Positions 1 to 24,905 of a DNA stretch of 64,000 bases are shown here, one piece after another. Source of the DNA: Syntrophomonadaceae bacterium (GTDB taxonomy: Bacteria > Bacillota > Dethiobacteria > DTU022 > UBA8154); the NCBI GenBank assembly GCA_003556225.1, contig PWRN01000041.1, positions 7,209 through 71,208 on the forward strand. The letters run 5' to 3'. Position 1 is the stretch's first letter; each line of letters starts with the position of its first letter. The notes beneath the pieces were generated by a model. The model had not been told where the DNA came from, did no database searches, and saw only the letters and a program-made list of their open reading frames with translations. Made by a program: the position numbers and the translations under genes.

Positions 1-638
1 TGCCGGTCTTGGAAGATTTGGGCAGCGGGGTCCTGGTGGACCTCTCCCGCTACGGCCTGCCCCATGAGCCCACGGTCCAGGAATCCGTTTCTGCGGGAGC
101 CGACCTGGTCATGTTCAGCGGAGACAAGCTCCTGGGAGGCCCGCAGGCAGGGTTTATCGTGGGGAAGAAACGTTACGTGGAGATGATTAAAAACAACCAG
201 CTGGCCCGGGCCCTGCGTGTGGACAAGTTTGCCCTGGCCGGACTGGAGGCCACCCTGCGTCTCTACCTGGATGAAAAAACGGCTCTCCGGGAAATCCCCA
301 TTTTGCGCATGCTGACCACCTCAACGGAAGACTTGGAACAGCGGGCAGCCCGCTTACTGGAGAAAATCTCCCCCCTGCTGCACGAGGGCTTCCAGGTAGG
401 GCTCCTTCGGGAAAAAGCCCGGGTTGGCGGTGGATCTCTGCCCCTGGTTGCCCTGCCTAGCTGCCAGGTCTTTATCGAGCCCCACCACATGAATGCCGGG
501 GCCTTTGCCGCTAAACTCCGCAAGGCAAAGAGGCCCATCATCGCCCGGGTGCGCAAAGACAGGGTATTGCTGGACCTGCGCTCCGTGCTGGAGCAAGAAG
601 ACGACCAGCTGCTGAGCAGCCTGGAAAGCGTGATCTAA
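1..638 (+). CDS. selA: L-seryl-tRNA(Sec) selenium transferase, C-terminal part (5' end outside the window)
   Basis: ORF 9..638 is open to the window edge; the translation has the SelA-type PLP-enzyme C-terminus (…GGPQAGFIVGKK…); it is immediately followed by selB. Confidence 0.75.
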   Translation, partial: PVLEDLGSGVLVDLSRYGLPHEPTVQESVSAGADLVMFSGDKLLGGPQAGFIVGKKRYVEMIKNNQLARALRVDKFALAGLEATLRLYLDEKTALREIPILRMLTTSTEDLEQRAARLLEKISPLLHEGFQVGLLREKARVGGGSLPLVALPSCQVFIEPHHMNAGAFAAKLRKAKRPIIARVRKDRVLLDLRSVLEQEDDQLLSSLESVI

Positions 639-670: not shown

Positions 671-2593
671 ATGATTATCGGGACAGCGGGACACGTGGAT
701 CATGGTAAAACTGAATTAATCAAGGCCCTGACGGGCATCGATACCGATCGCTTACATGAAGAAAAGGAGCGAGGGATTTCCATTGATATCGGTTTTGCTC
801 CTTATCGACTTCCCGACGGGAAGCTGGCAGGGGTTATTGATGTGCCTGGTCACGAGAAATTTATTCATAACATGCTGGCCGGCATCGGGGGGATCGATTT
901 GGTTTTACTGGTGATCGATGCCACCGAAGGGGTAATGCCCCAGACCAGAGAACATCTAGATATTTTGAACCTGCTGCAAGTGCAAAAAGGGCTGGTTGTG
1001 ATCACCAAGGTTGACCTGGTGGAAGAAGAGTGGTTGGAAATGGTGAAAGAAGATGTGGAGCAGGCTGTGAAAGGCTCCTTTTTGGAAGGTGCCTCCGTGC
1101 ACGTTGTTTCCTCGGTGACCGGCCTGGGGCTGGAAGAGCTGCGCAAGGCGATCGACGAGCTGGCGGAAGCCGTGGTGGAAAAAGATACGGCAGCCCCTTT
1201 ACGTGTTCCGGTGGATCGCATCTTTTCCGCTTCCGGTTTCGGCACCGTGATCACCGGGACGATCCTGGGAGGAACGGTTGTCCCGGGACAACGGGTAGAA
1301 GTGCTGCCTCCCGGGAAAGAGTGCCGCGTGCGGGGGGTGCAGGTACACGGCAGGCAGGTGGAGAAAGCGGTCGCGGGCCAGCGGGTAGCCCTGAACCTGG
1401 CAGGACTGGAAAAAAAAGATGTAGTGCGGGGAAGCGTGGTGGCTGAACCGGGCTATTTTCACCTGACTCGTTACTGCGACGCCCGGCTGGTGCTGTTACC
1501 TTCGGCGCCGCGCCCTTTGATCAACATGGCCCCCGTGCATTTTTACCTGGGGACGACGCGGGTGGTCTCGCGTATGCGCCTGCTGGGCTGTGAAGAACTG
1601 GCTCCAGGGGAAACGGGGTTCGCACAATGTCGCCTGGATCGAGCGGTGGTGGCCCGGCGGGGAGACCCTTTTATTATCCGCTCTTATTCTCCCATGCGGA
1701 CCATTGGGGGCGGCGTTGTCTTGGACGAAAACCCGGTTCGCCATAAAAGGTTCCGCCAGGATGTCCTGGAAAGGCTAAAAGAGCTGGAAAAAGAGGATCC
1801 GCTTCCTTTTGTGCTTCAGAAGCTGGGAGAAAAACACTATGCCACCTTGCAGGACCTGGCACTGCTGACCCAGTTGGGTCAGCAGTCCTTGCGGGAGATC
1901 ATGGAGCGGGCGCTGGAGCAAGGCGAAGTGATGCTGTTGGATGATCTGTACGTGCGCCGCCCGGTAGTGGAGCGTTGGGAGAAGGCGATTTTGCAGGAAC
2001 TGGAAGCTTTTCACCGGGCCAGGCCCCTGCAGCGGGGGATGCAGAAAGCCCGGGTATTCGGGCTGCTCCCCGGCAAAACCCCTCAACGCTTGTTCGATGC
2101 ACTGATCGAGCGCTTGCGCGACCAGGGCCGGTTGGAAACTTCCCGGGAGTTCGTCTTTAAAAGCGGCTTTCAACCCGAACCCGGCACACGGCAGGAGGAG
2201 CAGCTAAGGCGCGTGGAAGCACTTTTTAAAGAGGCCGGCCTAAACAGCCCCGCAGGAAAAGAGATCGGCCAGATGCTGGGACTAAAAAATGATGAGGAAG
2301 AGGAATTGCTGGACTACCTGCAGCACAGAGGTGTCCTGGTCAAAGTGGCTGAGGACATGTACCTGCACCGGGATGTCTACAAGCGGGGCCTGCAGGCCCT
2401 GGCCCGACATTTTCAGGATCATCCGACCTTAACCCTGGCCCAGTATCGCGACATTCTGCAGACGTCTCGCAAGCTCGCCCAGATCCTGCTGGAGCATTTT
2501 GACGCCATGAAATACACGCGACGGGTTGAAGATGAGCGGGTTCCCTGGAAAGTCCCTACCGGCAGTGATGCCACCGAAGCTGAAAAGAACTAA
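671..2593 (+). CDS. selB: selenocysteine-specific translation elongation factor SelB
   Basis: 640 aa; N-terminal GTPase G1 motif AGHVDHGKT plus DxPGH; long C-terminal winged-helix extension typical of SelB; sits after selA. Confidence 0.9.
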
Positions 2594-2662
2594 AAATATT
2601 TAACAATGTAAAATAAATCATGAAAAATCCGAGAAAAAAGCAGGACTTTATTTTAACGATGT

Positions 2663-2700
2663 CGAAATGAAGTGTGGTCATTTCGCAAGCACGGCCTTGC
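2663..2700 (+). terminator. two adjacent stem-loops after selB (CGAAATGA-n7-TCATTTCG, then GCAAGC-n4-CTTGC followed by TGTTTC); possible weak terminator or protein-binding palindrome
   Basis: perfect 8-nt inverted repeat read directly in the AT-rich spacer; the U-tract is poor. Confidence 0.25.
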
Positions 2701-3017
2701 TGTTTCATGGAAAGCGACGGATGGGGCAGGGTTGCTCATTTCTTTTTGCTTTTTAGCTGTTACTTTTTTCTTTCCTGCTAAAACTTCTCTAAAAAGAGCG
2801 GGGAGGTGTTAAGGGCCAGAAACTATTTTCTATATTCAGATCTTGTCGCAATGATGATGTCGAAGATGAACCAGCGGTTCGCTGCAGTGAGCAGGCATGA
2901 GCAGCACGGATTTTAGTATTTGGCGTCAATATTTTCACAGCAAAAATAATAAAGGGCATCAACGAACAGTTCAACAATTCTGGAAGGGATGGAAAAAAAC
3001 TACATCTCTAGCGAGGT

Positions 3018-4157
3018 ATGAAGATGACTGAAGAACTGCAGAGCTTTATTGAAAAATACGATTTATTGGGCTGCATCCAGTGCGGGAGATGTACCGGGGG
3101 ATGTCCGGTAACGGTTCGTACGGACTTAAACGTCCGCCGGTTTGTTTACGACACGGTGGATGAAGAAGCCCTGGAAGAATTGGCCAAGATGCCGGAGGTA
3201 TGGGACTGTACCGCCTGTAATACCTGTGCCGTGAGGTGCCCCAAGGGGCTCAAACCCGTTGAAGTCTTAATCGGGCTCAGAAATATCATGGTGGAGAGCG
3301 GCGTGGTGCAGCCGACCGTCCGGGACGCCCTGGAAAGTGTTTTCCGCGAGGGGAACCCCTGGGATAAATCCCGGGCCACACGTAACGACTGGATGAAGGA
3401 TTTGGAAGTGAAAATGGCCGAACCGGGTGAGCCGGTGGAAAACCTGATTTTTGTTTGCTGCACCATTGCCTATGACCCCAAGCTTCAGGTCGTTGCACAG
3501 AACCTGGTGAAACTGCTCAACAAGGCCGGAGTGGACTACGGTTTCATGGATACCAGCGAAACCTGCTGCTCCAGCGAGGTCCATAACCTGGGTGAAGAGG
3601 GCCTGTTTGAAATGATGGTGGAGGATAATACGGAACTTCTGAACGAGTATGCAGCCAAGCGCCTGGTGGCCATTTCTCCCCATTGCTACTCCGTGTTTAA
3701 AAACCAGTACCCCGACCTCAAGGCCGAAGTGCTGCACTACACTCACCTGGTCGGGGAAATTTTGGAAGACAAGAAACTCGAGCTGACCAGGGAACTTCCC
3801 GAAAAAATCGTTTTCCATGATCCCTGTTTCCTGGGTAAGCAGAACAACGTCTATGATGAACCCCGCTATGTCCTGGGCCAGATTCCCGGCGCGGAACTCC
3901 TGGAATTTGACCGCAGCCGCGAGCGCAGCCTTTGTTGTGAAGGAGGCGGCGGGAAAATGTGGGTGGAAACAGAATCCAAGAAAGAACGCCTGTCTGAAAC
4001 CCGGGTGAAGGACGCAAAAGAATTGGGCGCGACGGTCCTGGCCGTAGCCTGTCCTTTTTGCGTGCTGACCCTGGACGATTCCTTGAAAGCCAAGGGCTTC
4101 GAAGAGGAAATGCGGGTAGCTGAGATCCTGGAACTTTTAGGAGAAGCGCTGGATTAA
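3018..4157 (+). CDS. HdrD/GlcF-like soluble Fe-S oxidoreductase (HdrC-like 2x[4Fe-4S] N-terminus fused to two HdrB-like CCG domains)
   Basis: 379 aa; CIQCGRCTGGCP and CTACNTCAVRCP ferredoxin motifs; C-terminal canonical CCG domain (C-x~35-CCEGGGG-x~38-CPFC); N-terminal CCG-like domain is divergent (VCC…TCCSS…HCYS); no long hydrophobic segments. Confidence 0.8.
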   Translation: MKMTEELQSFIEKYDLLGCIQCGRCTGGCPVTVRTDLNVRRFVYDTVDEEALEELAKMPEVWDCTACNTCAVRCPKGLKPVEVLIGLRNIMVESGVVQPTVRDALESVFREGNPWDKSRATRNDWMKDLEVKMAEPGEPVENLIFVCCTIAYDPKLQVVAQNLVKLLNKAGVDYGFMDTSETCCSSEVHNLGEEGLFEMMVEDNTELLNEYAAKRLVAISPHCYSVFKNQYPDLKAEVLHYTHLVGEILEDKKLELTRELPEKIVFHDPCFLGKQNNVYDEPRYVLGQIPGAELLEFDRSRERSLCCEGGGGKMWVETESKKERLSETRVKDAKELGATVLAVACPFCVLTLDDSLKAKGFEEEMRVAEILELLGEALD

Positions 4158-4305
4158 GCTGTCCTGGAGATTTTAGACCCGGATTTTTTATTTCTACCGT
4201 ATAAAGGGGGTCTGCCAAAACAGGAACACGCTTTTTGAAGGATCGAAGATTGAACAAGATAAGAAAGCGAACATTCATTTAACGTTACAGGAGGTGGGTT
4301 TATTT

Positions 4306-5097
4306 ATGAAAACATTTGTCTGTATCAAAAGGGTGCCGGACACCTCGGAGGCGGAAGTGAAGGTAGACGCCACCGGCAAAGAAGTCGACAGCAGCAGGTT
4401 TTCTTTTGACATAAACGATGCTGATAATTACGCTGTCGAAGAGGCCATTTTGATTAAAGAAGCCAAGGAGGGGACGGTGCAAGTTATCTGCCTGGGTCCA
4501 AAAGATGCTGATGTGATGATCCGCATGGCCCTGGCAAAGGGAGGAGACAGCGCCATCCGGGTGGAGGACCCGCGAATTTTCGCCAAGGATCCCCTGCAGG
4601 TAGCCAAGGTCCTGGCGGCGACGATCAAGCAGGAAGGGGACTTTGACCTGGTGCTGACCGGCTGCATGTCGGCGGATAACTGGAACATGGCCGTCGGTGT
4701 CGCCCTGGCGGAAGAGCTGGGCGTCCCCCATGCCGCCATGGTAAACAAAGTGGAAGTGTTAGATGGGAAAGTCAAGGTCAACCGCGAACTGGAAGGCGGC
4801 CTCTCGGAAGTCCTGGAGGTGAGTCTTCCCGCTGTTCTCACCATACAGACGGGGATTAACGAGCCGCGTTATGCGCCCATCCGGGGTATTCGTGCGGCGC
4901 AGAAGAAGGAACTGAAAGTGCTCGGCCTGGACGATCTGGGTGTGGCAGAAGATGAAGTCAGCGAAGCGAACTCCCTGATCGAACTGATGCAGATGTACGT
5001 ACCCGAGCTGGAGTCCAAGGCGGAGATTATCGAAGGAGAGCCCGAAGAAAAAGCAGAAATCATGGCTCAAAAGCTGGTGAAAGGGGGGCTACTGTAA
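4306..5097 (+). CDS. etfB: electron transfer flavoprotein beta subunit
   Basis: MKTFVCIKRVPDTSE… is a typical EtfB N-terminus; RBS GGAGGTGGG lies 7 nt upstream of ATG 4306 (ORF track starts at GTG 4294). Confidence 0.85.
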   Translation: MKTFVCIKRVPDTSEAEVKVDATGKEVDSSRFSFDINDADNYAVEEAILIKEAKEGTVQVICLGPKDADVMIRMALAKGGDSAIRVEDPRIFAKDPLQVAKVLAATIKQEGDFDLVLTGCMSADNWNMAVGVALAEELGVPHAAMVNKVEVLDGKVKVNRELEGGLSEVLEVSLPAVLTIQTGINEPRYAPIRGIRAAQKKELKVLGLDDLGVAEDEVSEANSLIELMQMYVPELESKAEIIEGEPEEKAEIMAQKLVKGGLL

Positions 5098-5098
5098 A

Positions 5099-6073
5099 AT
5101 GGGAGACCTGTTTGTATTAGCTGAACACCGTCAGGGTGAACTGCGTGAAATAACTTTCGAGATGCTTTCCAAGGCCCCGGAAGTGGCCAAAGAACTGGGA
5201 GGCGATGTTGTTACTGTTTTGCTGGGCAGCGGCGTCGATGCTTTTGCAGAAAAACTGGCTGCCTACAGCGACAAAGTACTGTATGTCGATGACCCGCTCT
5301 TTGCGGATTACAATTCTGACAAGTATCAAAAGGTGCTGGCGGAACTGCTCAAAACCCACAAGCCAGATGTTTTCATGGTGGGTCACACGACCCAGGGGGT
5401 GGACATGGCCCCGGCATTGGCCGTGGAACTGAAGCTGCCCATGGTCACCGATGTGATGGATATTCATTTTAGCGATGGAAAGCTCTCGCCGGTTCGCCAG
5501 TACTACTCGGGCAAGGTCAACGCCGATTTTGGTTTCAAGGGAGACCCCCCGTACCTGCTAACGATCCGGGAAGCCAGTTTCGAGATCGTGGAAGGCAGCA
5601 AGCAGGGAGCCATCGAAAAGGTGGAATCTCCCCTGAAGGAAGATCTCGATTACCGCCGGTTTATTGAATACATCGAGGCCGAGGTGGGCGATGTGGATAT
5701 CACCCAGTCGGAAATCCTCGTTGCGGTCGGGCGGGGAATCCGGGAAGACAAGAACATGACTTTGATCGAAGATTTGGCCAAGGCCATCGGAGCGGATATC
5801 TGCGGCTCTCGCGCTGCTACAGACGCCGGCTGGCTGCCCCATGACCGCCAGGTGGGCACCTCGGGCAGAGTCGTGAAGCCCAAGCTGTATATCGCCATCG
5901 GCATATCCGGTGCGTTCCAACACCTGGCCGGCATGAAAGGGGCCAAGACCATCGTGGCCATCAACAAAGACCCCGATGCCCCGATTTTCACCGAGGCGGA
6001 TTATGCCATTATCGATGACCTGTTTAAGGTAGTCCCCAAGTTAACGGAAAAGATCACCGAGCTGAAAGGGTAA
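5099..6073 (+). CDS. etfA: electron transfer flavoprotein alpha subunit
   Basis: 324 aa; C-terminal FAD-binding region (…PKLYIAIGISGAFQHLAGMKGAKTIVAINKDPDAPIF…); starts 1 nt after the etfB stop. Confidence 0.85.
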   Translation: MGDLFVLAEHRQGELREITFEMLSKAPEVAKELGGDVVTVLLGSGVDAFAEKLAAYSDKVLYVDDPLFADYNSDKYQKVLAELLKTHKPDVFMVGHTTQGVDMAPALAVELKLPMVTDVMDIHFSDGKLSPVRQYYSGKVNADFGFKGDPPYLLTIREASFEIVEGSKQGAIEKVESPLKEDLDYRRFIEYIEAEVGDVDITQSEILVAVGRGIREDKNMTLIEDLAKAIGADICGSRAATDAGWLPHDRQVGTSGRVVKPKLYIAIGISGAFQHLAGMKGAKTIVAINKDPDAPIFTEADYAIIDDLFKVVPKLTEKITELKG

Positions 6074-6145
6074 CCCTGCTCTAGACTCTAGATAGAGGGA
6101 GAAACTAATGAACGTTACTCTGGTGTTGGAGGATGAAAGAGAGCC

Positions 6146-8143
6146 ATGAACAATAAACCAAGAATTGGTGTATATGTCTGTCACTGCGGGATCAACATCG
6201 CGAAAACAGTGGAGATCGATCCCGTTACAGAGTATGCTTCGCAATTGCCAAATGTCAAGGTCGCTCGCAACTACTCCTACATGTGCTCCGATCCTGGCCA
6301 GCTCCTGATCCGGGAAGATATCGAAAAAGAGGGCTTGAATCGCATTGTCGTGGCTTCCTGCTCTCCCCGGATGCACGAATTGACCTTCCGCAAAACCCTG
6401 GCGGAAGCGGGCTTGAACCCTTATTTCCTGGAGATGGCCAATATTCGGGAGCAGTGTTCCTGGGTGCACGAGGACGTGGAAGAAGCTACCGCCAAGGCCA
6501 GGAAGCTGGTGGCGTCCTCGGTGGCGAAAGCGCGGCTGCTGGAGCCCCTGGAAGAGAAGGAAGTCGACGTGGAGCCGGCAACCCTGGTCATCGGCGGTGG
6601 TATCGCCGGGATCCAGGCGGCCCTGGATATCGCCAATGCCGGTTTCAAGGTCTACATGGTGGAGAAAACGCCTTCTGTAGGGGGAACCATGGCCCAGCTG
6701 GATAAGACCTTCCCCACCCTGGATTGTTCGGCCTGTATTTTAACACCCAAGATGGTTGATGTGGCCAGCCATCCCAATATTGAGTTGATGACCTATTCTC
6801 AGGTCGAGGAAATAACGGGCTACGTGGGCAACTTCGAGGTGAAGGTGCGCAAGAAAGCGCGCTATATTGATATGGAAAAGTGCACCGGGTGTGGCATTTG
6901 TGCCGAAGAGTGCCGGCTGAAAAACCGGATTCCCAGTGAATTTGACGTGGGGGTGGGAAAACGCTCGGCCGTTTACCTGCCTTTCCCCCAGGCCGTACCG
7001 GCCAAGTATACCGTAGACCCGGAACGCTGCCTCTTCTTAACCCGGGGGAAATGCGGTGAGTCGCCCAAGTGTGCCGATGCCTGCCCGTCCCAGGCTTTTG
7101 ATTTCGAGCAGGCCGACGAAATGGTCGAATTCAAGGTGGGGGCGGTCATCGTTGCCACCGGGTTCGATGTCTTCGACGCCTCCAGGAAGCCCGAGTACGG
7201 TTATGCCGACTATGATAACGTGCTCACGGCGCTGGAAATGGAGCGCCTGGTTTCCGCCTCGGGGCCAACGGGCGGAAAAATTGTCCTCGGCAAGGGAGAT
7301 GAAGCGTACACCCCCAAGGATATTGCCTTTATTAAATGTGTCGGTTCCCGGGACGAGAGCGTGGGAAACGAGTACTGTTCCAGGGGCTGCTGCATGTACA
7401 CGGCCAAGCTGGCCCACCTGGTCCACGAAAAAATACCCGATGCCAACGTGCGCATTTACTACATGGACGTGCGGGCCTTTGGCAAGGGTTTTGAAGAGTT
7501 TTATGACCGGGTACGCCGGGAGGGCGTCCGTTACATTCGCGGCAACCCTTCGGAAATCTTTAAACGGGGCGATAAGCTGGTGATCAAGGTAGAGGATACC
7601 TTAACGGCGAAAGCCCTGGAGGATGAAGTGGACCTGGTGGTGCTGGCCGTGGGCCTGGAGCCCCGGAAAGATGTCCGGGAAATCATCGACCTGCTGCGGC
7701 TGTCCCAGTCGGGAGACCGTTTTTTCCTGGAGGCCCATCCCAAGCTGGCCCCGGTGGATACGGCAACCGATGGTGTATACCTGGCCGGCTGCGCCCAGGG
7801 ACCCAAGGATATCCCCGACACGGTAGCCCAGGCCAAGGGCGCCGCATCCTCGGCGTTAATCTTGCTTTCCAGCGGGAAAGTGAAAGTGCAGGCCCAAATC
7901 GCCATTGTCAATGAAGCCACCTGCCGGAGCTGCGGATACTGCGTGGAGATCTGTCCCTATGGGGCGATTGAAATGGTCGAAGCCAACCGCATGGGTCACA
8001 TCGTTTCCGTGGCCCGGGTCAACGAGGCCCTCTGCAAGGGCTGCGGGGCCTGTGTCGCGGGCTGTTTCTCCGGCTCAATCCAGCAAAAATCTTTCAAGGA
8101 CGCGCAAATCTTGCCGCAGCTTGCTGTACTGGGGGTTAAGTAA
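6146..8143 (+). CDS. hdrA: heterodisulfide reductase subunit A-like flavoprotein (FAD, multiple [4Fe-4S])
   Basis: 665 aa; N-terminal Cys cluster VYVCHCGINIAK…CSPRM; FAD-binding GGGIAGIQAALD; inserted ferredoxin CTGCGICAEEC; C-terminal CRSCGYCVEICP and CKGCGACVAGC; the reading frame is uninterrupted, so this is a Cys-type (non-Sec) HdrA. Confidence 0.85.
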   Translation: MNNKPRIGVYVCHCGINIAKTVEIDPVTEYASQLPNVKVARNYSYMCSDPGQLLIREDIEKEGLNRIVVASCSPRMHELTFRKTLAEAGLNPYFLEMANIREQCSWVHEDVEEATAKARKLVASSVAKARLLEPLEEKEVDVEPATLVIGGGIAGIQAALDIANAGFKVYMVEKTPSVGGTMAQLDKTFPTLDCSACILTPKMVDVASHPNIELMTYSQVEEITGYVGNFEVKVRKKARYIDMEKCTGCGICAEECRLKNRIPSEFDVGVGKRSAVYLPFPQAVPAKYTVDPERCLFLTRGKCGESPKCADACPSQAFDFEQADEMVEFKVGAVIVATGFDVFDASRKPEYGYADYDNVLTALEMERLVSASGPTGGKIVLGKGDEAYTPKDIAFIKCVGSRDESVGNEYCSRGCCMYTAKLAHLVHEKIPDANVRIYYMDVRAFGKGFEEFYDRVRREGVRYIRGNPSEIFKRGDKLVIKVEDTLTAKALEDEVDLVVLAVGLEPRKDVREIIDLLRLSQSGDRFFLEAHPKLAPVDTATDGVYLAGCAQGPKDIPDTVAQAKGAASSALILLSSGKVKVQAQIAIVNEATCRSCGYCVEICPYGAIEMVEANRMGHIVSVARVNEALCKGCGACVAGCFSGSIQQKSFKDAQILPQLAVLGVK

Positions 8144-8146
8144 GAG

Positions 8147-8578
8147 ATGAACGATAAATTCGAACCCAATATTGTTGCCTTTTTGTGTAACTGGTGTTCT
8201 TATGCCGGTGCAGACCTGGCTGGCACCAGCCGCATTCAGTACCCGGCTAACCTGAATATCATCCGGGTGATGTGTACCGGCCGTGTCAACCCGCTTTTCG
8301 TCTTGAATGCTTTTCAACAGGGAGCTGACGGGGTGTTGGTTTCCGGGTGCCATCCTGGCGACTGTCACTATATGGAGGGGAATTATTACGCCCGACGCCG
8401 CTTCACGCTCATGCGTGAACTGTTGGAGTACGTGGGCGTTGATCCCCGCCGCTTCCACATGAGCTGGGTCTCGGCTTCGGAGGGCGCCAAGTGGAAAGAA
8501 GTCGTCGAAGAAGTGGTTGAAAATGCAAAAGCTGTCGGGCCTTTTGACCAGTTCCGGCGGAACAAGATCAACTGGTAG
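8147..8578 (+). CDS. mvhD: MvhD/FlxD-like [2Fe-2S] protein (methyl-viologen-reducing hydrogenase delta subunit family)
   Basis: 143 aa; IVAFLCNWCSYAGADLAG…MCTGRV…VSGCHPGDCHY is the MvhD/FlpD signature; starts 3 nt after hdrA. Confidence 0.8.
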   Translation: MNDKFEPNIVAFLCNWCSYAGADLAGTSRIQYPANLNIIRVMCTGRVNPLFVLNAFQQGADGVLVSGCHPGDCHYMEGNYYARRRFTLMRELLEYVGVDPRRFHMSWVSASEGAKWKEVVEEVVENAKAVGPFDQFRRNKINW

Positions 8579-8591
8579 AGGAGGAGAACGC

Positions 8592-9578
8592 TTGGTAGAT
8601 CTCGATAAACTCAGAACCGTAGCCAAGGAGACTGTCTCCCGTGATGACGTGAAGTATCTCATCGGCTGGAGCCAGGGTACCTTCGGGTATCGTGTTTCTC
8701 CGCATTTTGTCAAAACCCCTCAGGAGGTTGACAGCCTCACGTTCTCGCCCCTTTGCAGCAATAATTTGGCGACCTACCTCACCCTGACCGAGAAGCTTCC
8801 TGTACCCCGGGGAGAGGAGCCTGATACCCGCAAGGTAGCGCTTATGGTCAAAGGCTGTGACAGCCGCGCCGTTGTGCAGCAGCTGATCGAACAGGGGATA
8901 ACGCGGGAACAGGTCTATATCATCGGCTGCCCCTGCCAGGGGGTTGTTGACCTGCAAAAAGTTGATGAAAAGCTGGGTGAAGGGGTGGAACCCGCTCAAG
9001 CCAGCTGGGAAAACGGTCAGATTTCCTTCCAGCTTCCTGACGGGAAGACAGAGGCTTTTCCCCGGGAAGACGTGCTGGCCGACAAATGTATAACCTGCCG
9101 CTACCCCAACCCGGTGCTTTCCGATATTTTACTATGGGATGAAGTTGAAGTTTGGGGAAGTGATGATTACGAGGATGTAAAGGAACTGGATAGCAAGTCG
9201 CCCGAAGAGAAGTGGGCCTTCTGGCAGGACAAGTTTTCCAGCTGCATCCGGTGTTATTCCTGCAGGAACGTCTGTCCCATGTGTTACTGCGAGGACTGTA
9301 TACTGGACCGGCTCAATCCTACCTGGATGTTCCGCTCAAACAACGTGGTGGAAAACACGGCATTTCAGGTGGCCAGGGCATTCCACCTGGCGGGGCGCTG
9401 TATAGAATGCGGGGAATGTGAAAGGGTCTGCCCGGTAGACATTCCGCTGATGAAGATCAATCGCAAACTTTACAAGGAAGTTCGAGAAAAGTACGAATTT
9501 GAGCCCGGGCTGGATCCTGAATCCAAACCGCTCCAGGCCAGTTATCGTCCCGACGACGAAGAAGACTTCATACTCTAG
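8592..9578 (+). CDS. AsrA/HydB-like iron-sulfur protein (FlxC-like; sulfhydrogenase beta family)
   Basis: ORF track starts at TTG 8517 and overlaps mvhD by 60 nt; the likely real start is TTG 8592, 5 nt after GGAGGAG. Motifs: KVALMVKGCDSRAV, CITCRYPNP, CIRCYSCRNVCPMCYCEDC, CIECGECERVCP. Confidence 0.6.
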   Translation: MVDLDKLRTVAKETVSRDDVKYLIGWSQGTFGYRVSPHFVKTPQEVDSLTFSPLCSNNLATYLTLTEKLPVPRGEEPDTRKVALMVKGCDSRAVVQQLIEQGITREQVYIIGCPCQGVVDLQKVDEKLGEGVEPAQASWENGQISFQLPDGKTEAFPREDVLADKCITCRYPNPVLSDILLWDEVEVWGSDDYEDVKELDSKSPEEKWAFWQDKFSSCIRCYSCRNVCPMCYCEDCILDRLNPTWMFRSNNVVENTAFQVARAFHLAGRCIECGECERVCPVDIPLMKINRKLYKEVREKYEFEPGLDPESKPLQASYRPDDEEDFIL

Positions 9579-9589
9579 AGGTGGGTGCT

Positions 9590-10606
9590 ATGGAAAGTTT
9601 GAAACTAAGCAAAGAGAAACTTGGTGATTTTGTTTCCAAGTTGACCGACAAGGAACTGCTTGTGCCCCAGAAGGAAGGGGAGGCCTTGAAGTTTGCCCCC
9701 CTTGCAGGCGAAGATATGCCTGAACTGGATTATGAAAATACCAGTGTGCCGCCGAAAAATGCTGTTTTTCCCCATACGGAGACGATGCTCCAGTTTGAAC
9801 TGGGGAAAATGGATATGCAGGTGGCTGCTGGCGATGAAAAGGAAAAGGTGCTCCTGGGTGTGAGGCCCTGCGACGCCCGGGCCATGGTGATCATCGACAA
9901 CCTGTTCACCTGGGATGTGGACGATCCATACTACGTGGATAAAAGGGAAAAATCAACCGTGGTGGGATTGGCTTGCCATGAACCCTGCAGTAACTGTTTT
10001 TGCACCTCCGTGGGGGGCGGCCCGGCTTCCACCGAGGGTCTGGATGTGCTTTTGACGGATCTGGGAGACAGTTACCTGGTCCAGCCCCTTTCGGAAAAAG
10101 GAGAAGTCCTTTGCCAGGCCGGTGCCGATGTCCTGGAAAAAGCCTCGGATGCCGACATTCAAGGGGCTGAGAAAGCCCACGAAGAGGCCGCGAATAAGAT
10201 CTCTCGCCACATCGATACCGCTGGCATTCCAGAAAACCTTCCTTCCTTGTGGGAGCATGAATTGTGGGAAGAGGTTTCCCGTTCCTGTCTGGGCTGCGGT
10301 ATCTGCACCTTCCTTTGCCCCCCCTGCCACTGCTTTGATATGCAGGATGAAGTGGAGGGCTTCGAAGGCCGGAGATGCCGGACCTGGGATTCCTGCATGT
10401 TTTCGGAATACACCATGCATGCTTCCGGGCATAATCCCCGGCATTCTCGCCGGGAACGTACCCGCAACCGGATCAATCACAAGTATTCCTATTACGTGGA
10501 CAAGTTTGATGTCATCGCCTGCGTGGGTTGTGGCCGGTGCATCAACCTTTGCCCGGTCAACATCGATATTCTCGACATTCTATCAAAGGTCAGGGAGGCA
10601 CTATGA
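9590..10606 (+). CDS. AsrA/HydB-like iron-sulfur protein (FlxB-like; anaerobic sulfite reductase subunit A family)
   Basis: Can be aligned by eye to Salmonella AsrA: …HTETMLQFE…VLLGVRPCDARAM…CSNCFC…CLGCGICTFLCPPCHCFD…RCRTWDSCMF…CVGCGRCINLCP; ATG 9590 lies after RBS AGAGGTGGG. Confidence 0.65.
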   Translation: MESLKLSKEKLGDFVSKLTDKELLVPQKEGEALKFAPLAGEDMPELDYENTSVPPKNAVFPHTETMLQFELGKMDMQVAAGDEKEKVLLGVRPCDARAMVIIDNLFTWDVDDPYYVDKREKSTVVGLACHEPCSNCFCTSVGGGPASTEGLDVLLTDLGDSYLVQPLSEKGEVLCQAGADVLEKASDADIQGAEKAHEEAANKISRHIDTAGIPENLPSLWEHELWEEVSRSCLGCGICTFLCPPCHCFDMQDEVEGFEGRRCRTWDSCMFSEYTMHASGHNPRHSRRERTRNRINHKYSYYVDKFDVIACVGCGRCINLCPVNIDILDILSKVREAL

Positions 10607-11451
10607 GAGAGAACGGCAATCCGTATAAACCGCATGTAGCATCCATTGAAGATGCCTGGTACGAAACCTACGGAGATCGCGCCATTAAAACGTTTAAAGT
10701 CGTCTTCGATGATGAGGAAATCAAGGAAAGTTGGGAGCATCGTCCGGGCCAGTGCGCCATGATCGGGCTGCCGGGCGTGGGCGAAAGCATGATCTCTATT
10801 TCCTCTTCCCCCACGGAAGGAAAATTCTTACGGTTTTCCGTCATGCGGATGGGTAAAGTAACCCAGGCGTTGCACGAGCTGGAGCCGGGGGATAAAATAA
10901 CCGTTCGCGGCCCTTACGGGAACAGCTTCCCCGTAGACGAATGGAAAGGGAAAAAGATCATTACCATCGGTGGTGGGATTGGTCAGGCGCCGCTGCGGCC
11001 CATTATCGAGTATGTCAAAGCAAACCGCGCTGACTATGAGGATCTCACGATTATTTACGGGTCCAGGACATCGGGCGATCTTTGCTTCAAGGGTGAACTG
11101 GAAGAAGTGACCAGCACAGATGATGTGAGTTGCCACCTTTCCATCGACGTGGAAGAGGAGAACTGGCAGCATTACGTGGGTTTTGTTCCCTCTTTGTTGA
11201 TGGAAGTCAATCCATCGCCAGAAAATGCCATTGCCATTACCTGCGGCCCGCCGATCATGATTCGCTTTGTCCTGGAAAACCTGAAGAAGCTGAATTTCGA
11301 AGATGAGCAGATCTACACCACCCTGGAAAACCGTATGAAGTGCGGAATTGGCAAATGCGGCCGCTGTAATGCCGGCAACCTCTATGTCTGCAAAGATGGC
11401 CCTGTCTTCAACTACGCAACCTTAAAGCAGGTCCCGGAATCCTTTGCCTGA
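10603..11451 (+). CDS. AsrB/HydG/PyrK-like NAD(P)H:FAD oxidoreductase with a C-terminal [2Fe-2S] site (FlxA-like)
   Basis: The ATG overlaps the upstream stop (ATGA); FAD/NAD-binding ferredoxin-reductase fold (RPGQCAM…ITIGGGIGQAPL…CGPPIM) and C-terminal CGIGKCGRCNAG. Confidence 0.7.
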   Translation: MRENGNPYKPHVASIEDAWYETYGDRAIKTFKVVFDDEEIKESWEHRPGQCAMIGLPGVGESMISISSSPTEGKFLRFSVMRMGKVTQALHELEPGDKITVRGPYGNSFPVDEWKGKKIITIGGGIGQAPLRPIIEYVKANRADYEDLTIIYGSRTSGDLCFKGELEEVTSTDDVSCHLSIDVEEENWQHYVGFVPSLLMEVNPSPENAIAITCGPPIMIRFVLENLKKLNFEDEQIYTTLENRMKCGIGKCGRCNAGNLYVCKDGPVFNYATLKQVPESFA

Positions 11452-11483
11452 TCCTTGCAGGAGAGGGTCCAGGAGGTTATTTT

Positions 11484-11523
11484 AAGCAGGCTGTCTCCAG
11501 TCAGGGAGGTAGCCTGCTTTTTC
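11484..11523 (+). terminator. rho-independent terminator ending the hdr-etf-flx operon
   Basis: AAGCAGGCT-n18-AGCCTGCTTTTTC: GC-rich hairpin plus a U-run, 30 nt after the flxA-like stop. Confidence 0.6.
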
Positions 11524-11697
11524 GGTGGGGTGCTGCGCCGCGTGGAATATCCCTTGCAGCAAGAGAACTTGCGGGTGGATGGTGCCACAAGTAGAAGATG
11601 ATCAACCGGATCTAACCGGTTTGCGGTTGAAAGCTGCCGGAGCGGTTCACAGTGCCTTACGCCCGGTTGGTAGTAATTCGCTCCTTGCGCTATGCCC

Positions 11698-11726
11698 TTG
11701 ATTTTTGCTGCGGTAGGCCCTATACT
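11698..11726 (+). promoter_or_regulatory. sigma-A type promoter (TTGATT-17-TATACT) for the rseC-like gene
   Basis: hexamers with 17-nt spacing read directly, about 65 nt upstream of ATG 11790. Confidence 0.5.
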
Positions 11727-11789
11727 ATAAATAATCTCAGCATTGTTTAGCTGGTATGAACTGATCTTCACGGGGGATGTGAACCGGAG

Positions 11790-12296
11790 ATGGAACAGTA
11801 TGGACAGGTTGTGGATCAAACGGGTCATCAGAGGGCCCTGGTGCGGGTGAGACAGCACCTTTCCTGTGCCAGTTGCGGCAAGTGTGGCGGCACGTTTTTG
11901 GGTGATCCCGGCAAGCGGAGTGATAACCTGGTCGAGGTCTTAAACCCCATTGGCGCGGGAAAAGGAGCACTGGTGCGGCTGGAAGCCCGGCCGAGCGAAA
12001 TGATCCTGGCCGCTTTTCTTTTGTATATCCTTCCTCTCCTGGTCCTGCTGGCGGGCCTTTTTACCGGCAGAAATCTTGCGGCCAGCCAGGGATTTGCTGG
12101 ACACCCCGACCTTTGGGGAGCGATCCTTGGCGGTGTGCTTATGGTTGTTGTTTTCGCGGTACTCAAAGCCAAGGATGCCCAATTTTCAAGCAGCAAGCGC
12201 TTTAAAGCGGTGATTACGGCCGTAATCGACGAAGATGATATCCCCAAAGATTTTCTGCCGGAAAAAGGCGGCGGAGATCAAGAGTGCGAGGATTAA
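11790..12296 (+). CDS. RseC/MucC-family membrane protein (SoxR-reducing system RseC-like)
   Basis: 168 aa; N-terminal G-x-V-x…RxSaCxSCxxCGG motif (…RQHLSCASCGKCGG…) followed by two hydrophobic helices; RBS GGAG. Confidence 0.6.
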   Translation: MEQYGQVVDQTGHQRALVRVRQHLSCASCGKCGGTFLGDPGKRSDNLVEVLNPIGAGKGALVRLEARPSEMILAAFLLYILPLLVLLAGLFTGRNLAASQGFAGHPDLWGAILGGVLMVVVFAVLKAKDAQFSSSKRFKAVITAVIDEDDIPKDFLPEKGGGDQECED

Positions 12297-12359
12297 AGAT
12301 TGTGCGGGTGGTTGTTTCCCTACGGGATAAGACTGCCGATCTCCCCGCCCGGGGTATGA

Positions 12360-12388
12360 TTGCAAATAATACCCGGTTGTGTTAAAAT
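12360..12388 (+). promoter_or_regulatory. sigma-A type promoter (TTGCAA-17-TAAAAT) for the lys leader
   Basis: read directly. Confidence 0.5.
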
Positions 12389-12394
12389 ACCTTG

Positions 12395-12610
12395 CAAATT
12401 CAATAATGCCTCATCTCTCTCAGGCAGCGGGGTGGGGTAGAGGTGCGGTTGGCAAAGAGTATGGCCGGGGAAAGTCGGTCCTTGATGATCCGGGCAAAAA
12501 GGGGCCGCCGCCGAAGTTTTTGGTGGAAGACCGCGGGCCAAAAACTGGTTTGCCAGTGAACAACTGGTAAATTGTCACCCGTCGGAAAGGCCCGTTTCCC
12601 GGGTGGAGCG
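12395..12610 (+). promoter_or_regulatory. candidate lysine riboswitch (L-box) in the leader of lysA-dapF-dapL-asd-lysC
   Basis: 330-nt untranslated leader before lysA containing L-box-like blocks GGUAGAGGUGCGG, GGGGAAAG, GCCGCCGAAG, AUUGUCACCCGUCGG; followed by a hairpin plus U-run (~12640-12692) that could act as the terminator expression platform. Confidence 0.55.
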
Positions 12611-12716
12611 CTATCTCGCTTTGGGCACTTAGAGGGTTGCTTTTGCTGTATAAAGCGGTTGGCGGATTTGCTGTCAGCCGTTTTTTGTTTAATTATTTCC
12701 CCAGGGAGGTAGAGGT

Positions 12717-14021
12717 ATGATACTGGCTGGATCCATGGAGATCAACACCAAAGGGAACCTGGAAATTGGAGGCTGCGATACCGTTGAGCTTGCCAGGCAG
12801 TTTGGCACACCTTTATTCGTCATGGATGAAGCGCTCATCCGGAACAACTGCCGGCGCTACGTGAACGCGTTGAAAACCCATTATCCCAGGGGGATGGTCC
12901 TTTTTGCCGGCAAGGCGTTTCTAACCCTGGCCATGTCCCGGCTGATCCAGGAGGAGAACATGGGGATGGATGTGGTCTCGGGGGGGGAACTCTTCACCGC
13001 TGTGAATGCAGATTTTCCGGCCGAGCGGATCTATTTTCACGGGAACAACAAATCCACCCGGGAACTGATCGATGCGATCAAGCTGGGCGTAGGCCGGATT
13101 GTCGTGGACAGCGTGCCGGAGTTGGAAGAAATTAGGGAACTGGCGGTCCAATTCGCAGAAAACAAGGTGGCGGTGCTCCTGCGGGTGAAACCGGGCGTGG
13201 AAGCCCATACCCACGATTTTATCCGGACGGGACAGGAGGATTCCAAGTTCGGTTTTGGGATCGAGGACAACAGCGCCCGGGAGGCCGTGGAGCTTTGTCT
13301 CCAGGCGGCGGATATCATTGACCTGGCTGGCTTCCACTGCCACATCGGTTCGCAGATCTTTCAGTTGGAACCTTTCTCTGTTGCTGCACAAATCATGGTT
13401 GAATTCATGGCCGGGGTGAGGGAGCAGACGGGTTTTGTTGCCAGGGAACTGGACCTGGGCGGTGGCCTTGGCATCCGTTATCAGAGAGAGGATAAGCCTC
13501 CGTCCATTGAAAGATTCGTGGAGAACCTGGCGCTGAGCTTGAAGAGCGCCCTGCAGAAATGGGACTACCCCCTGCCGGAGCTTTTACTGGAACCGGGCCG
13601 TTCCATCACCGGAGAGGCCGGGGTAACCCTTTACACCGTGGGTGTGATCAAAGATGTGCCCGGCATTCGCCGCTACGTGTCGGTGGACGGGGGAATGATG
13701 GACAATATCCGTCCGGCCCTCTACCAGGCCCAATACGAGGCGGCAATTTGCAATAAGATGACCCGGGAACCTGGAGAAATAGTCACCCTGGCCGGTAAGG
13801 CCTGCGAGTCGGGCGATATTTTAATTAAAGACATTGAGCTTCCGGCAGCGGAAAGCGGGGATATCGTGGCGGTATTCAGCACCGGGGCGTATTGTTATTC
13901 CATGAGCAGCAACTACAACCGGAATCCCCGCCCGGCGGTCATCTTTGTTCGTGATGGTGAGCCGAGGATCGTTGTGCGGCGGGAGTCCTACGAGGATCTG
14001 ATCGCGCTGGATGTGCTGTAA
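12717..14021 (+). CDS. lysA: diaminopimelate decarboxylase
   Basis: 434 aa; Orn/DAP/Arg decarboxylase family 2 (…ESGD…, …GAYCYSMSSNYN…); RBS GGGAGGTAGAGG. Confidence 0.9.
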   Translation: MILAGSMEINTKGNLEIGGCDTVELARQFGTPLFVMDEALIRNNCRRYVNALKTHYPRGMVLFAGKAFLTLAMSRLIQEENMGMDVVSGGELFTAVNADFPAERIYFHGNNKSTRELIDAIKLGVGRIVVDSVPELEEIRELAVQFAENKVAVLLRVKPGVEAHTHDFIRTGQEDSKFGFGIEDNSAREAVELCLQAADIIDLAGFHCHIGSQIFQLEPFSVAAQIMVEFMAGVREQTGFVARELDLGGGLGIRYQREDKPPSIERFVENLALSLKSALQKWDYPLPELLLEPGRSITGEAGVTLYTVGVIKDVPGIRRYVSVDGGMMDNIRPALYQAQYEAAICNKMTREPGEIVTLAGKACESGDILIKDIELPAAESGDIVAVFSTGAYCYSMSSNYNRNPRPAVIFVRDGEPRIVVRRESYEDLIALDVL

Positions 14022-24195: not shown

Positions 24196-24905
24196 ACCTG
24201 GATTTGCTGGCTTTCGGCCCCCACCCCGATGATGTCGAAATTGGTGCAGGGGGGATCCTGGCCCGTCATGCGGAATGGGGCTATCGCTGCGGAATCGTAG
24301 ACCTGACGGCCGGCGAGATGTCCAGCAACGGGACAGTGGAAGAGCGAAAAATCGAGGCGCAGAACGCTAAAGAGGTGCTGGGGTGTTTGCTCCGGGACTG
24401 CCTTCACCTGCCCGATGCCCACCTGGAAACAAACCAAGATAGTATCTACAAGGTAATTTCTGCATTGAGGAAACATCGGCCCCGGGTCGTGTTGGCCCCT
24501 TACTACAAGGATGATCGACACCCGGACCACAGTACAGCGGGGGAACTGGTGCGGCGAGCCGTTTATCTTTCCGGCCTGAAACGCCTCCCCCTGGGGGGGG
24601 AACCCTTTCGGCCCGGCAAGCTTTACTTTTTCTTGCTATCGGTGCAGCGTGAACCGGACTTCATCGTGGATATTTCATCGGTTTATGAAAAAAAAGAAGA
24701 GGCCATCCGGGCTCACCTGAGCCAGTTTTACCATCATCGATCGGACCGCAAGCCGACCCTGGTGAACGATCCATTTTTTATCCGTTATATCAAGAGCCGA
24801 GACAGCTACCTGGGGTCGCTGATCGGTACGGCCCAGGGGGAAGGACTGGTTGCCCACGAGATACCGGCCGTCTCTGATCTCGTGCAATGGAGTGAGCTAG
24901 AATGA
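24192..24905 (+). CDS. bshB: LmbE/PIG-L family N-acetylglucosaminyl-malate deacetylase (BshB)
   Basis: LAFGPHPDDVEIGAGG… and HPDH metal-site motifs; 4-nt overlap with bshC. Confidence 0.8.
   Translation: MNLDLLAFGPHPDDVEIGAGGILARHAEWGYRCGIVDLTAGEMSSNGTVEERKIEAQNAKEVLGCLLRDCLHLPDAHLETNQDSIYKVISALRKHRPRVVLAPYYKDDRHPDHSTAGELVRRAVYLSGLKRLPLGGEPFRPGKLYFFLLSVQREPDFIVDISSVYEKKEEAIRAHLSQFYHHRSDRKPTLVNDPFFIRYIKSRDSYLGSLIGTAQGEGLVAHEIPAVSDLVQWSELE

Follow-up and report, generated by a model that had tools for sequence, protein, structure and literature searches.

An eight-gene operon joining hdrD-like, etfBA, hdrA and flxDCBA-like genes in anaerobic Bacillota and Actinomycetota, a candidate soluble bifurcating complex with built-in electron transfer flavoprotein genes

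The stretch of DNA analysed here (the window) comprises 64,000 nucleotides (nt) from a Syntrophomonadaceae bacterium (GenBank assembly GCA_003556225.1, contig PWRN01000041.1, positions 7,209 to 71,208 of the forward strand). It carries eight co-directional open reading frames (ORFs) on the plus strand, at 3024–11451, in which a gene for a fused HdrC/HdrB-type (HdrD-like) protein and the two genes of an electron transfer flavoprotein (ETF) are followed by hdrA and by four genes resembling flxD, flxC, flxB and flxA (Table 1). Start codons were re-set from ribosome-binding sites and homologue lengths. Pfam and NCBIfam scans found in each product the domains that a preliminary description of this DNA had named. 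None of the eight ORFs contained an internal in-frame stop, and hydropathy-based prediction placed transmembrane (TM) segments in none of the eight proteins.

The successive intergenic gaps were 148, 1, 72, 3, 13 and 11 nt, and flxB and flxA overlapped by 4 nt (ATGA). The genes had been described as separated by short spacers or overlapping, which held for the gaps of 1–13 nt and the ATGA overlap and failed for the two longest gaps, of 148 and 72 nt, which bracket etfBA. No hidden terminator was found in the internal spacers, and the 148- and 72-nt spacers folded as shuffled sequence does (z about 0). At the end of the operon, the terminator reported earlier was borne out by a strong fold: a 109-nt stretch containing the hairpin gave −47 kcal/mol (z −2.66). 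A consensus scan for promoters and terminators left this hairpin unreported because four T are present and five are needed; the scan performed at chance level, its other terminator-like matches included. The intergenic region upstream of the operon held no ORF and no Rfam match, and a weak sigma-70-like site was located there at 2600–2628 (9/12 matches). A Rex operator, the mark of NADH-responsive control, was sought upstream and not found, the sole match in the window lying elsewhere and being at chance level. The boundaries of the operon are clear because the neighbouring genes are unrelated.

Table 1. Features of the operon and of its surroundings (positions in the window; aa, amino acids)
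Feature	Position	Strand	Basis or remark
Presumed operon promoter region, intergenic, 430 nt	2594..3023	+	Function from position only
hdrD-like, fused HdrC/HdrB-type, 377 aa	3024..4157	+	Pfam Fer4_8 and two CCG domains; two cubane [4Fe-4S] motifs
etfB, ETF small subunit, 263 aa	4306..5097	+	Pfam ETF; ATG after AGGAGG
etfA, ETF large subunit with FAD domain, 324 aa	5099..6073	+	Pfam ETF and ETF_alpha
hdrA, full-length HdrA-type, 665 aa	6146..8143	+	NCBIfam HdrA2, HdrA
mvhD/flxD-like [2Fe-2S] adaptor, 143 aa	8147..8578	+	Pfam FlpD, 6e-56, full profile
flxC-like Fe-S protein, 328 aa	8592..9578	+	TTG start after GAGGAGGAG; Fer4 dicluster at residues 215–284
flxB-like Fe-S protein, sulfhydrogenase beta/AsrA type, 338 aa	9590..10606	+	Pfam Fer4_22; NCBIfam ShyB, HydB, AsrA
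flxA-like NAD(P)H:FAD/[2Fe-2S] flavoprotein, 282 aa	10603..11451	+	Pfam FAD_binding_6, NAD_binding_1, DHODB_Fe-S_bind
Terminator-like hairpin at operon end	11484..11523	+	15-bp perfect stem, 6-nt loop, then TTTTC
selA, cut by the window edge	9–638	+	Upstream neighbour
selB	671–2593	+	Directly upstream of the operon
RseC/MucC-family membrane protein	11790–12296	+	Three hydrophobic segments; N-terminal Cys-rich stretch
Lysine riboswitch	12430–12621	+	Rfam RF00168, 92.7 bits, E 6e-24

A scan of one genome per species for relatives of the CCG-domain protein encoded by the hdrD-like gene yielded at least 585 genome stretches, from which the best 80 were taken for comparison, and in a large protein collection the relatives at E ≤ 1e-20 numbered more than 2,400, the best 120 of them 68–98% identical to the window protein. 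Synteny was assessed by tblastn of the eight window proteins against related loci, 82 of which were counted. All eight genes occurred in identical order at 51 of these loci (37 Bacillota-like and 14 from Actinomycetota); another 30 were truncated by contig ends and showed a consistent prefix of the order, leaving one exception (L001). Every locus that reached far enough had etfB next to the hdrD-like gene. The arrangement is far beyond chance, and etfBA, which the preliminary description had proposed to look for within hdr-flx loci of other genomes, is there in the 51 complete loci of two phyla. The Actinomycetota copies were 55–78% identical to the window proteins, and the nearest relative among the matches listed was a soda-lake metagenome-assembled genome (MAG), Syntrophomonadaceae bacterium CSSed11_70 (97% identity). 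The Bacillota carriers included Dethiobacter (with a MAG of Dethiobacter alkaliphilus, L008), Dethiobacteria and unclassified Bacillota of anaerobic digesters, DTU022 among them, and the Actinomycetota carriers included Ca. Geothermincola, Ca. Solincola, Anoxymicrobiaceae and others. When the flanking ORFs of the 82 loci were clustered, no family, a partner dehydrogenase included, was common to both phyla, indicating that the eight genes are a conserved functional unit. The exceptional locus L001 (GCA_900198705.1, FZPS01000036.1; a 3.3-Mb record) has an hdrD-like gene (84%) and etfB (82%), followed by URO-D and pilin-like genes; either rearrangement or decay of the copy or an artefact of assembly would account for this, and we treated the locus as an assembly oddity.

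The searchable literature contained no description of this cluster, in keeping with the earlier claim of a novel arrangement, and an earlier mention is possible, as most subscription papers lie outside that literature. In PMC7325909, a figure legend on gene neighbourhoods drawn for an actinobacterium includes fix, hdr and mvhD, which the text leaves undiscussed, and the lone 'Etf-Hdr' match in the literature was the string 'metF-HdrABC'. The cluster is real and widespread; as an enzyme architecture it is uncharacterised, with components and a logic that are known.

The HdrD-like protein had been presented as a soluble fusion of HdrC and HdrB serving as the heterodisulfide-reducing module. The fusion and the solubility stood: the protein starts 16 residues before its first cluster motif, and its maximum 19-residue hydropathy of 1.61 lies inside a strand of a CCG domain. 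The reducing role found no support in the comparison with known structures. The best match in the PDB was EtfD, the ETF:menaquinone oxidoreductase of M. smegmatis (9ojn_A, E 1.4e-51, residues 58–371), whereas HdrC chains scored 1e-13 to 4e-15 and HdrB 1e-4; when the N-terminal CCG domain was compared alone, EtfD was the sole PDB match. The AlphaFold model of the protein had a mean confidence (predicted local distance difference test) of 69, with the non-cubane domain mostly above 85, and Foldseek again ranked 9ojn first (1.9e-19), with LutA and HdrB behind it (1e-7).

We further placed the published EtfD ligands (PMC13083937) on the 9ojn_A alignment. The proximal non-cubane cysteines C268, C304, C305, C343 and C346 (377-aa numbering) corresponded to EtfD C637, C672, C673, C709 and C712, and H220 aligned with EtfD His583. 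At the distal site, C146, C181 and C221 corresponded to EtfD C503, C538 and C584, with three differences: EtfD T539 is replaced by C182, EtfD C581 by S218, and an additional C145 precedes C146. The proximal ligands, the His and the S-P-H-C (xPHC) motif were invariant in 82/82 orthologues, and the first Cys of the CxxC was Ser in all of them. As expected of an EMO/EtfD-type protein, CIQCGRCTGGCP and CTACNTCAVRCP were present and conserved in the orthologues. In about 10 of the 25 Actinomycetota orthologues (loci L056–L083), KHCGSE or SDCGSE stands at the second 'CC' of the distal site, and this variability beside an invariant proximal site indicates that the distal cluster type probably differs between lineages.

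These features have close counterparts in three characterised proteins. EtfD has a linear [3Fe-4S] distal cluster, a conserved proximal cluster and a pocket-filling His (PMC13083937); the EMO of S. aciditrophicus (SaEMO) has a [4Fe-5S] cluster and a His in the heterodisulfide site (bioRxiv 10.64898/2026.08.18.745454); and BamD has a Cys-to-Ser change, a modified [3Fe-4S] cluster and His230 filling the CoM-S-S-CoB site (bioRxiv 10.64898/2026.04.10.717634). The authors argue against disulfide chemistry in all three cases (PMC13083937; bioRxiv 10.64898/2026.08.18.745454; 10.64898/2026.04.10.717634). Judged by its sequence, the CCG subunit of the operon is EtfD/EMO/BamD-like in character, not HdrB-like, and we propose that it is the ETF-docking subunit through which the high-potential electron would leave. 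Its distal CC..CC..SxxC site seems akin to the distal cluster, itself variable, of EMO and BamD and would not be empty.

The wider family of the HdrD-like protein is diverse. In a library of representatives at 50% identity, 1,480 proteins matched at ≤ 1e-30, and the best 150 were sorted into three classes. The long class (>580 aa) had 105 members, 89 of them with an N-terminal extension of about 286 aa containing 4–5 TM segments; one sampled member had a NarI-like domain and another followed a molybdopterin oxidoreductase. Seventeen proteins of about 520 aa formed a second class, in which the one sampled member was TfrB-like, with a [2Fe-2S] domain, and was encoded beside an FrdA-type flavoprotein. 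The remaining 28 were short and soluble. The 520-aa proteins are fusions of [2Fe-2S], dicluster and CCG domains (TfrB/SdhB-E-like), and around the sampled one, at locus L089 (6092–9380), genes for CoA-transferases, fumarase and malic enzyme accompany that of the FrdA-type flavoprotein; this region, from a hydrocarbon metagenome, looks like a soluble fumarate-reductase-like system.

EtfB was most similar, among solved structures, to the beta subunit of the Methylophilus W3A1 ETF (1o94_C, 5e-47, 164 bits), which we take to be an AMP-containing, non-bifurcating ETF. The bifurcating EtfBs (CarD, LctB and those of A. fermentans, T. maritima and C. difficile) scored 86–112 bits (CarD 3e-31), and the human and Paracoccus proteins 105–110 bits. 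Garcia Costas et al. 2017 reportedly defined the ETF groups and assigned to group-2 EtfBs a segment, GRQAIDGDTAQVG, that binds beta-FAD and NADH; we defined this bifurcating motif by two aligned structures together with that assignment. The aligned bifurcating EtfBs (CarD, A. fermentans) carry GRQAIDGDTAQVG, and the window EtfB reads GCMSADNWNMAVG there. Across 79 EtfB orthologues the segment varies (xDDGxMxxG-like, for example GCMASDDGHMSTG and GALTDDDGYAAVP), and DGDTAQVG occurs in none. EtfA matched CarE (5e-62) and the W3A1 alpha subunit (5e-60). It lacks the N-terminal ferredoxin domain of CarE, as the CarE alignment starts at residue 71 of that protein, and it also lacks the N-terminal ferredoxin domain of LctC. 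On these grounds, EtfAB is probably of the AMP-binding, non-bifurcating type.

HdrA had been called full-length, and it is: residues 4–659 aligned with 3–646 of the M. thermolithotrophicus protein (5odc_A, 832 bits, E 3e-249), covering the full methanogen-type domain set with its N-terminal cluster domain, TrxR-like FAD domain, and inserted and C-terminal ferredoxin domains. Lys421 aligned with Lys409 of 5odc_A, and Wagner et al. 2017 are said to have found the HdrA Lys in contact with the flavin N5. The description of BamE treats this Lys as a hallmark of Hdr-type bifurcating flavins (bioRxiv 10.64898/2026.04.10.717634). The operon HdrA is, as far as its sequence tells, of the canonical full-length bifurcating type. 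The mvhD/flxD-like gene begins 3 nt past hdrA, and its product has five Cys. The FlxA-like protein matched the gamma subunit of P. furiosus sulfhydrogenase I (9nez_C, 2.8e-66) and the FlxB-like protein its beta subunit (9nez_B, 2.2e-53), upholding the Flx-like assignment made at the outset. Ramos et al. 2015 reportedly characterised the Flx proteins in a way that fits such gamma and beta matches. The FlxC-like and FlxB-like proteins have only the dicluster domain in common (1e-6), FrhB_FdhB_C was sub-threshold in the former (E 0.006), and no gene for a hydrogenase catalytic subunit follows the flxBA-like genes.

We propose, with moderate confidence, that the operon encodes a soluble HdrA-type bifurcating complex in which NADH would reduce ferredoxin together with the operon's own ETF as high-potential substrate. 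The combination of an EtfD/EMO-like CCG subunit with a non-bifurcating ETF makes the ETF the most likely high-potential acceptor in place of a heterodisulfide, whereas the preliminary description had left the acceptor open. In this proposal, FlxA (FAD, [2Fe-2S]) would oxidise NAD(P)H, and FlxB, FlxC and then the [2Fe-2S] cluster of MvhD/FlxD would carry the electrons to the bifurcating FAD of HdrA. The low-potential electron would pass through the ferredoxin domains of HdrA to ferredoxin, and the high-potential electron would reach the FAD of docked EtfAB by way of the HdrD-like protein, with its two cubane clusters and its non-cubane cluster(s). The net, reversible reaction would be 2 NADH + 2 Fd(ox) + ETF(ox) → 2 NAD+ + 2 Fd(red) + ETF(red), where Fd is ferredoxin. 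Reduced ETF would then be exchanged with flavin dehydrogenases encoded elsewhere, acyl-CoA dehydrogenases for instance, and in reverse the complex could use reduced ETF and reduced ferredoxin to form NADH with neither quinones nor a membrane. Assembly of the eight proteins into one complex, the docking of the ETF, the stoichiometry and the direction are all parts of the model that we infer.

Two precedents bear on the ETF branch. In SaEMO–ETF, docking is mediated by EtfB, and the FAD swings to within 12–13 Å of the non-cubane clusters (bioRxiv 10.64898/2026.08.18.745454). By cryo-electron tomography, an ETF was seen bound to BamD, where it accepts the high-potential electron from the HdrA-type BamE (bioRxiv 10.64898/2026.04.10.717634; 10.64898/2026.08.18.745454). 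With NADH at −320 mV, ferredoxin at about −450 mV and ETF at about 0 to +16 mV, the ETF potential being taken from the BamOP value (bioRxiv 10.64898/2026.04.10.717634), bifurcation would be exergonic by about 20 kJ per NADH.

Variant clusters also bear on the proposal. L085 (679–7985) encodes an HdrD-like protein, EtfB, EtfA, a 903-aa HdrA/GltD-like fusion and an HdrA-like protein; L087 (594–6427) encodes EtfA, EtfB, and then HdrA and an HdrD-like protein; and L086 (1–3096) encodes an HdrD-like protein between two HdrA-like ones. Their CCG proteins were about 40–43% identical in local alignments (L085, L087) and 43–49% over the full match (L085, L086, L087). The arrangements at L085 and L087 support a core of ETF, HdrD-like protein and HdrA with interchangeable NAD(P)H input modules, and the three loci together suggest a wider family of ETF-linked HdrA complexes.

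Several observations weigh against an ETF-reducing enzyme of this kind. No partner dehydrogenase for the ETF is encoded near the operon. The N-terminal HdrC-like domain of the AlphaFold model is of low confidence, and this part supports no conclusion. The N-terminal CCG domain, which had been described as degenerate so as to leave a single non-cubane site, keeps five Cys (CC..CC..SxxC) in all Bacillota-like and most Actinomycetota loci; this speaks against the single-site reading, and a five-Cys distal site could bind a reactive cluster. The C-terminal CCG domain likewise has five Cys. The best NCBIfam model for the HdrD-like protein was TfrB, a thiol-reactive enzyme, at a score far below the cut-off. 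The xPHC His was also present in TfrB-like and other membrane-anchored relatives, in all three classes of the family, indicating a trait of the subfamily rather than a specific ETF marker; its use as an ETF-specific marker was weakened for that reason. EtfB keeps an N-terminal KxVPDT motif, as in bifurcating EtfBs, which may leave room for a second FAD; C(I/V)K(x)VPDT occurs in CarD and in the EtfB of A. fermentans, and the human, Paracoccus and W3A1 proteins lack it.

The same enzyme might run in the opposite, confurcating direction, with reduced ETF and reduced ferredoxin merged at HdrA to reduce NAD+, as a soluble alternative to the reverse redox loop of EMO; we consider this possible though rather unlikely. 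Its hosts would suit such a role, being Dethiobacteria-like Bacillota and Wood-Ljungdahl Actinomycetota, and a Dethiobacteria MAG with a complete beta-oxidation pathway has been proposed as a syntrophic acetate oxidiser (PMC7334858). All eight proteins are soluble, and bifurcating enzymes are reversible in principle. An acyl-CoA mutase operon also lies directly upstream in 7–9 of 25 Actinomycetota loci, where genes for a corrinoid adenosyltransferase, a methylmalonyl-CoA-mutase-family large subunit and a B12-binding small subunit are co-directional with the cluster (for example, L061 5745–9188 and L067 5751–9748). This neighbourhood hints that the cluster serves acyl-CoA metabolism in those Actinomycetota, and the mutase genes, together with beta-oxidation in Dethiobacteria (PMC7334858), point weakly to acyl-CoA dehydrogenases as the ETF partners. 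Against confurcation, the reaction would be endergonic by about 20 kJ per NADH at standard potentials and would need a strongly reduced ferredoxin pool; in addition, no dehydrogenase is conserved beside the cluster, and the sequence sets no direction.

A classical Flx-Hdr enzyme, in which the HdrCB-type subunit reduces a disulfide (on a DsrC-like protein, a lipoyl or TusA-type carrier, or bacillithiol) and the ETF is accessory, appears improbable. The Flx-like and HdrA modules would be as in the Desulfovibrio system, each of the two CCG domains has its five Cys, the best NCBIfam model is that of thiol:fumarate reductase (TfrB), and the genome has bacillithiol synthesis genes, bshCBA. The HdrB match is marginal, however (1e-4 versus 1e-51 for EtfD), the first Cys of the CxxC is Ser in 82/82 orthologues, and the pocket-filling His is invariant. 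The ever-present etfBA would be needless for a disulfide reductase, and no DsrC, TusA or LbpA-like gene was found in the window neighbourhood or the conserved flanks. The earlier statement that neither a dehydrogenase nor a DsrC-like gene is adjacent was confirmed, as neither is present in the window neighbourhood or conserved in the flanks.

The preliminary description had raised a double bifurcation, in which EtfAB itself would be a two-FAD, NADH-binding ETF and each assembly would contain two bifurcating flavins. The C(I/V)K(x)VPDT motif of EtfB, as in CarD and A. fermentans EtfB, and the about equal similarity of EtfA to CarE and to W3A1 alpha would fit it. The GRQAIDGDTAQVG segment is nevertheless replaced by a variable xDDGxMxxG-like one, the best solved match is the W3A1 ETF beta subunit (164 bits versus 86–112 bits for bifurcating EtfBs), NAD(P)H already has a module of its own in Flx, and the ETF partners that bind EMO and BamD do not bifurcate (bioRxiv 10.64898/2026.08.18.745454; 10.64898/2026.04.10.717634), so that we regard the claim as very doubtful. 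Least plausible to us are two merely adjacent units, a soluble HdrD-like/EtfBA pair and an HdrA-FlxDCBA NADH:ferredoxin module, which would match the long 148- and 72-nt spacers around etfBA but would sit badly with the invariant order in 51 complete loci of two phyla, with homologue spacers of mostly about 30–60 nt, with spacers free of terminator-like structure, with variant clusters that again pair ETF, HdrD-like and HdrA genes, and with the incompleteness of each unit (an HdrA with no HdrBC-type partner and an HdrD-like protein with no electron source).

Known HdrA-based bifurcating complexes have branches to heterodisulfide, DsrC, methylene-THF or benzoyl-CoA. To our knowledge, it was not until 2026 that an ETF was observed as the high-potential acceptor of an HdrA-type module, in the benzoyl-CoA reductase of one megadalton. 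If the complex bifurcates from NADH to ferredoxin and ETF as proposed, it would be a minimal, self-contained form of that principle, with NADH in, ferredoxin and ETF out, and the etf genes built in, and it would provide a third route of NADH–ferredoxin–ETF coupling besides bifurcating EtfAB and EtfABCX. HdrB-type non-cubane domains would then have been turned repeatedly from disulfide catalysis to ETF docking. It is quite conceivable, if a little short of probable in our estimate, that the cluster represents a widespread stand-alone NADH:ETF/ferredoxin oxidoreductase, which, in Wood-Ljungdahl and syntrophic hosts of the two phyla, would couple ETF-linked dehydrogenases, those of acyl-CoA oxidation or reduction and possibly further flavin enzymes, to the NADH and ferredoxin pools with no quinone or membrane involved. 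It would also be a candidate for balancing redox carriers in poorly understood syntrophic oxidisers of acetate and fatty acids; were it to run in reverse in vivo, it would offer syntrophs a soluble way of re-oxidising ETF, a task otherwise solved by the reverse redox loop of EMO. Likely mis-annotations as 'heterodisulfide reductase' and 'group 3b hydrogenase subunits' would be corrected.

The genes around the operon vary with the phylum. The pair selA-selB, often with selD, precedes the cluster in 35–40 of 58 Bacillota-like loci. Selenocysteine in the operon was considered on account of the adjacent selAB and ruled out, as the ORFs have no in-frame stops; the selAB adjacency is conserved all the same. 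On the other side, the RseC/MucC-family gene lies 3' of the operon hairpin and has a promoter-like site of its own (11698–11726). At least 28 Bacillota-like loci keep it on the downstream side of the cluster, the Actinomycetota loci lack it, and a link of its product to the complex, for example in cofactor maturation, is possible. An Rfam scan of 2400–12800 found nothing besides the lysine riboswitch of the downstream lysA operon. A terminator-like hairpin (12652–12684) follows the riboswitch and is itself followed by lysA (12717–14021), dapF, an aminotransferase gene, asd and the aspartokinase gene lysC; with the riboswitch and hairpin at their head, these downstream genes form a separate lysine-controlled unit. 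Further on, bshC, a PIG-L deacetylase gene (bshB-like) and a GT4 glycosyltransferase gene (bshA-like) are consecutive at 22618–26050 (+), so the organism probably makes bacillithiol.

Among known systems, the type II sHdr clusters of sulfur oxidisers (shdrC1B1AHB3-etfAB-emo; PMC11094781) likewise link an Hdr-like complex genetically to etfAB and to a fused HdrCB-type protein. Their sHdrA is short and non-bifurcating, whereas the operon HdrA is covered by 6tjr only at residues 331–573, and no sHdrH, lipoate-binding, sulfur-transferase or membrane EMO gene was seen among the window genes at 9–34794 or in the conserved flanks, although no dedicated search was made. As in bifurcating EtfAB–butyryl-CoA dehydrogenase and EtfABCX, NADH is predicted to reduce ferredoxin and a high-potential, ETF-linked acceptor; unlike in those enzymes, bifurcation would occur at the FAD of HdrA and not at the beta-FAD of EtfB, and the Etf has no group-2 motif.

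EMO/EtfD is the closest solved structure by both sequence and fold, with two cubane clusters, a non-cubane domain and a link to etfBA. The HdrD-like protein differs from it in having no NarI-like five-helix haem b membrane domain, so that electrons could not reach menaquinone, and its partner would be HdrA and not the quinone pool. The FlxABCD-HdrABC of Desulfovibrio vulgaris, called an NADH dehydrogenase/heterodisulfide reductase in a passage of PMC6687939, resembles the operon in its FlxA-, FlxB- and FlxD-like genes and HdrA, and perhaps in a FlxC-like gene, and NADH-driven bifurcation to ferredoxin has been proposed for it. The operon departs from it in the order hdrA-flxDCBA, in the EtfD-like fusion that replaces separate HdrB and HdrC, and in the inserted etfBA. 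It also shows no link to DsrC or an alcohol dehydrogenase in the window neighbourhood or the conserved flanks. The Desulfovibrio system has two canonical CX31-39CCX35-36CXXC motifs, whereas the N-terminal motif of the operon protein is CC..CC..SxxC.

The closest functional parallel, compared by published description, is BamDEF with its ETF in Geobacter metallireducens. Each includes a soluble subunit in which HdrB- and HdrC-type parts are fused; Ser replaces a Cys of its distal motif, a His lies in its pocket for the heterodisulfide, and in both systems this subunit goes with an HdrA-type flavoprotein and an MvhD-type adaptor, attached to one another in BamDEF and known as genes here. On the Bam side, the high-potential electron is taken up by a non-bifurcating ETF bound at the non-cubane clusters. 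The operon differs in that its HdrA is a single canonical copy and not a fused dimer like BamE, its adaptor is short and has no selenocysteine, and its etf genes lie inside the operon. Its input is a Flx module (sulfhydrogenase beta/gamma-like) and not the HydBC-like BamGHI, and neither an AFOR/BamBC nor a NuoEF/HydBC-type gene is present in the operon or its immediate flanks; as a tungsten BamBC output is missing, the low-potential electron is presumed to go to ferredoxin. Taken by analogy, the operon would function most nearly as the BamDEF-ETF portion of benzoyl-CoA reductase does, with electrons supplied by a Flx module.

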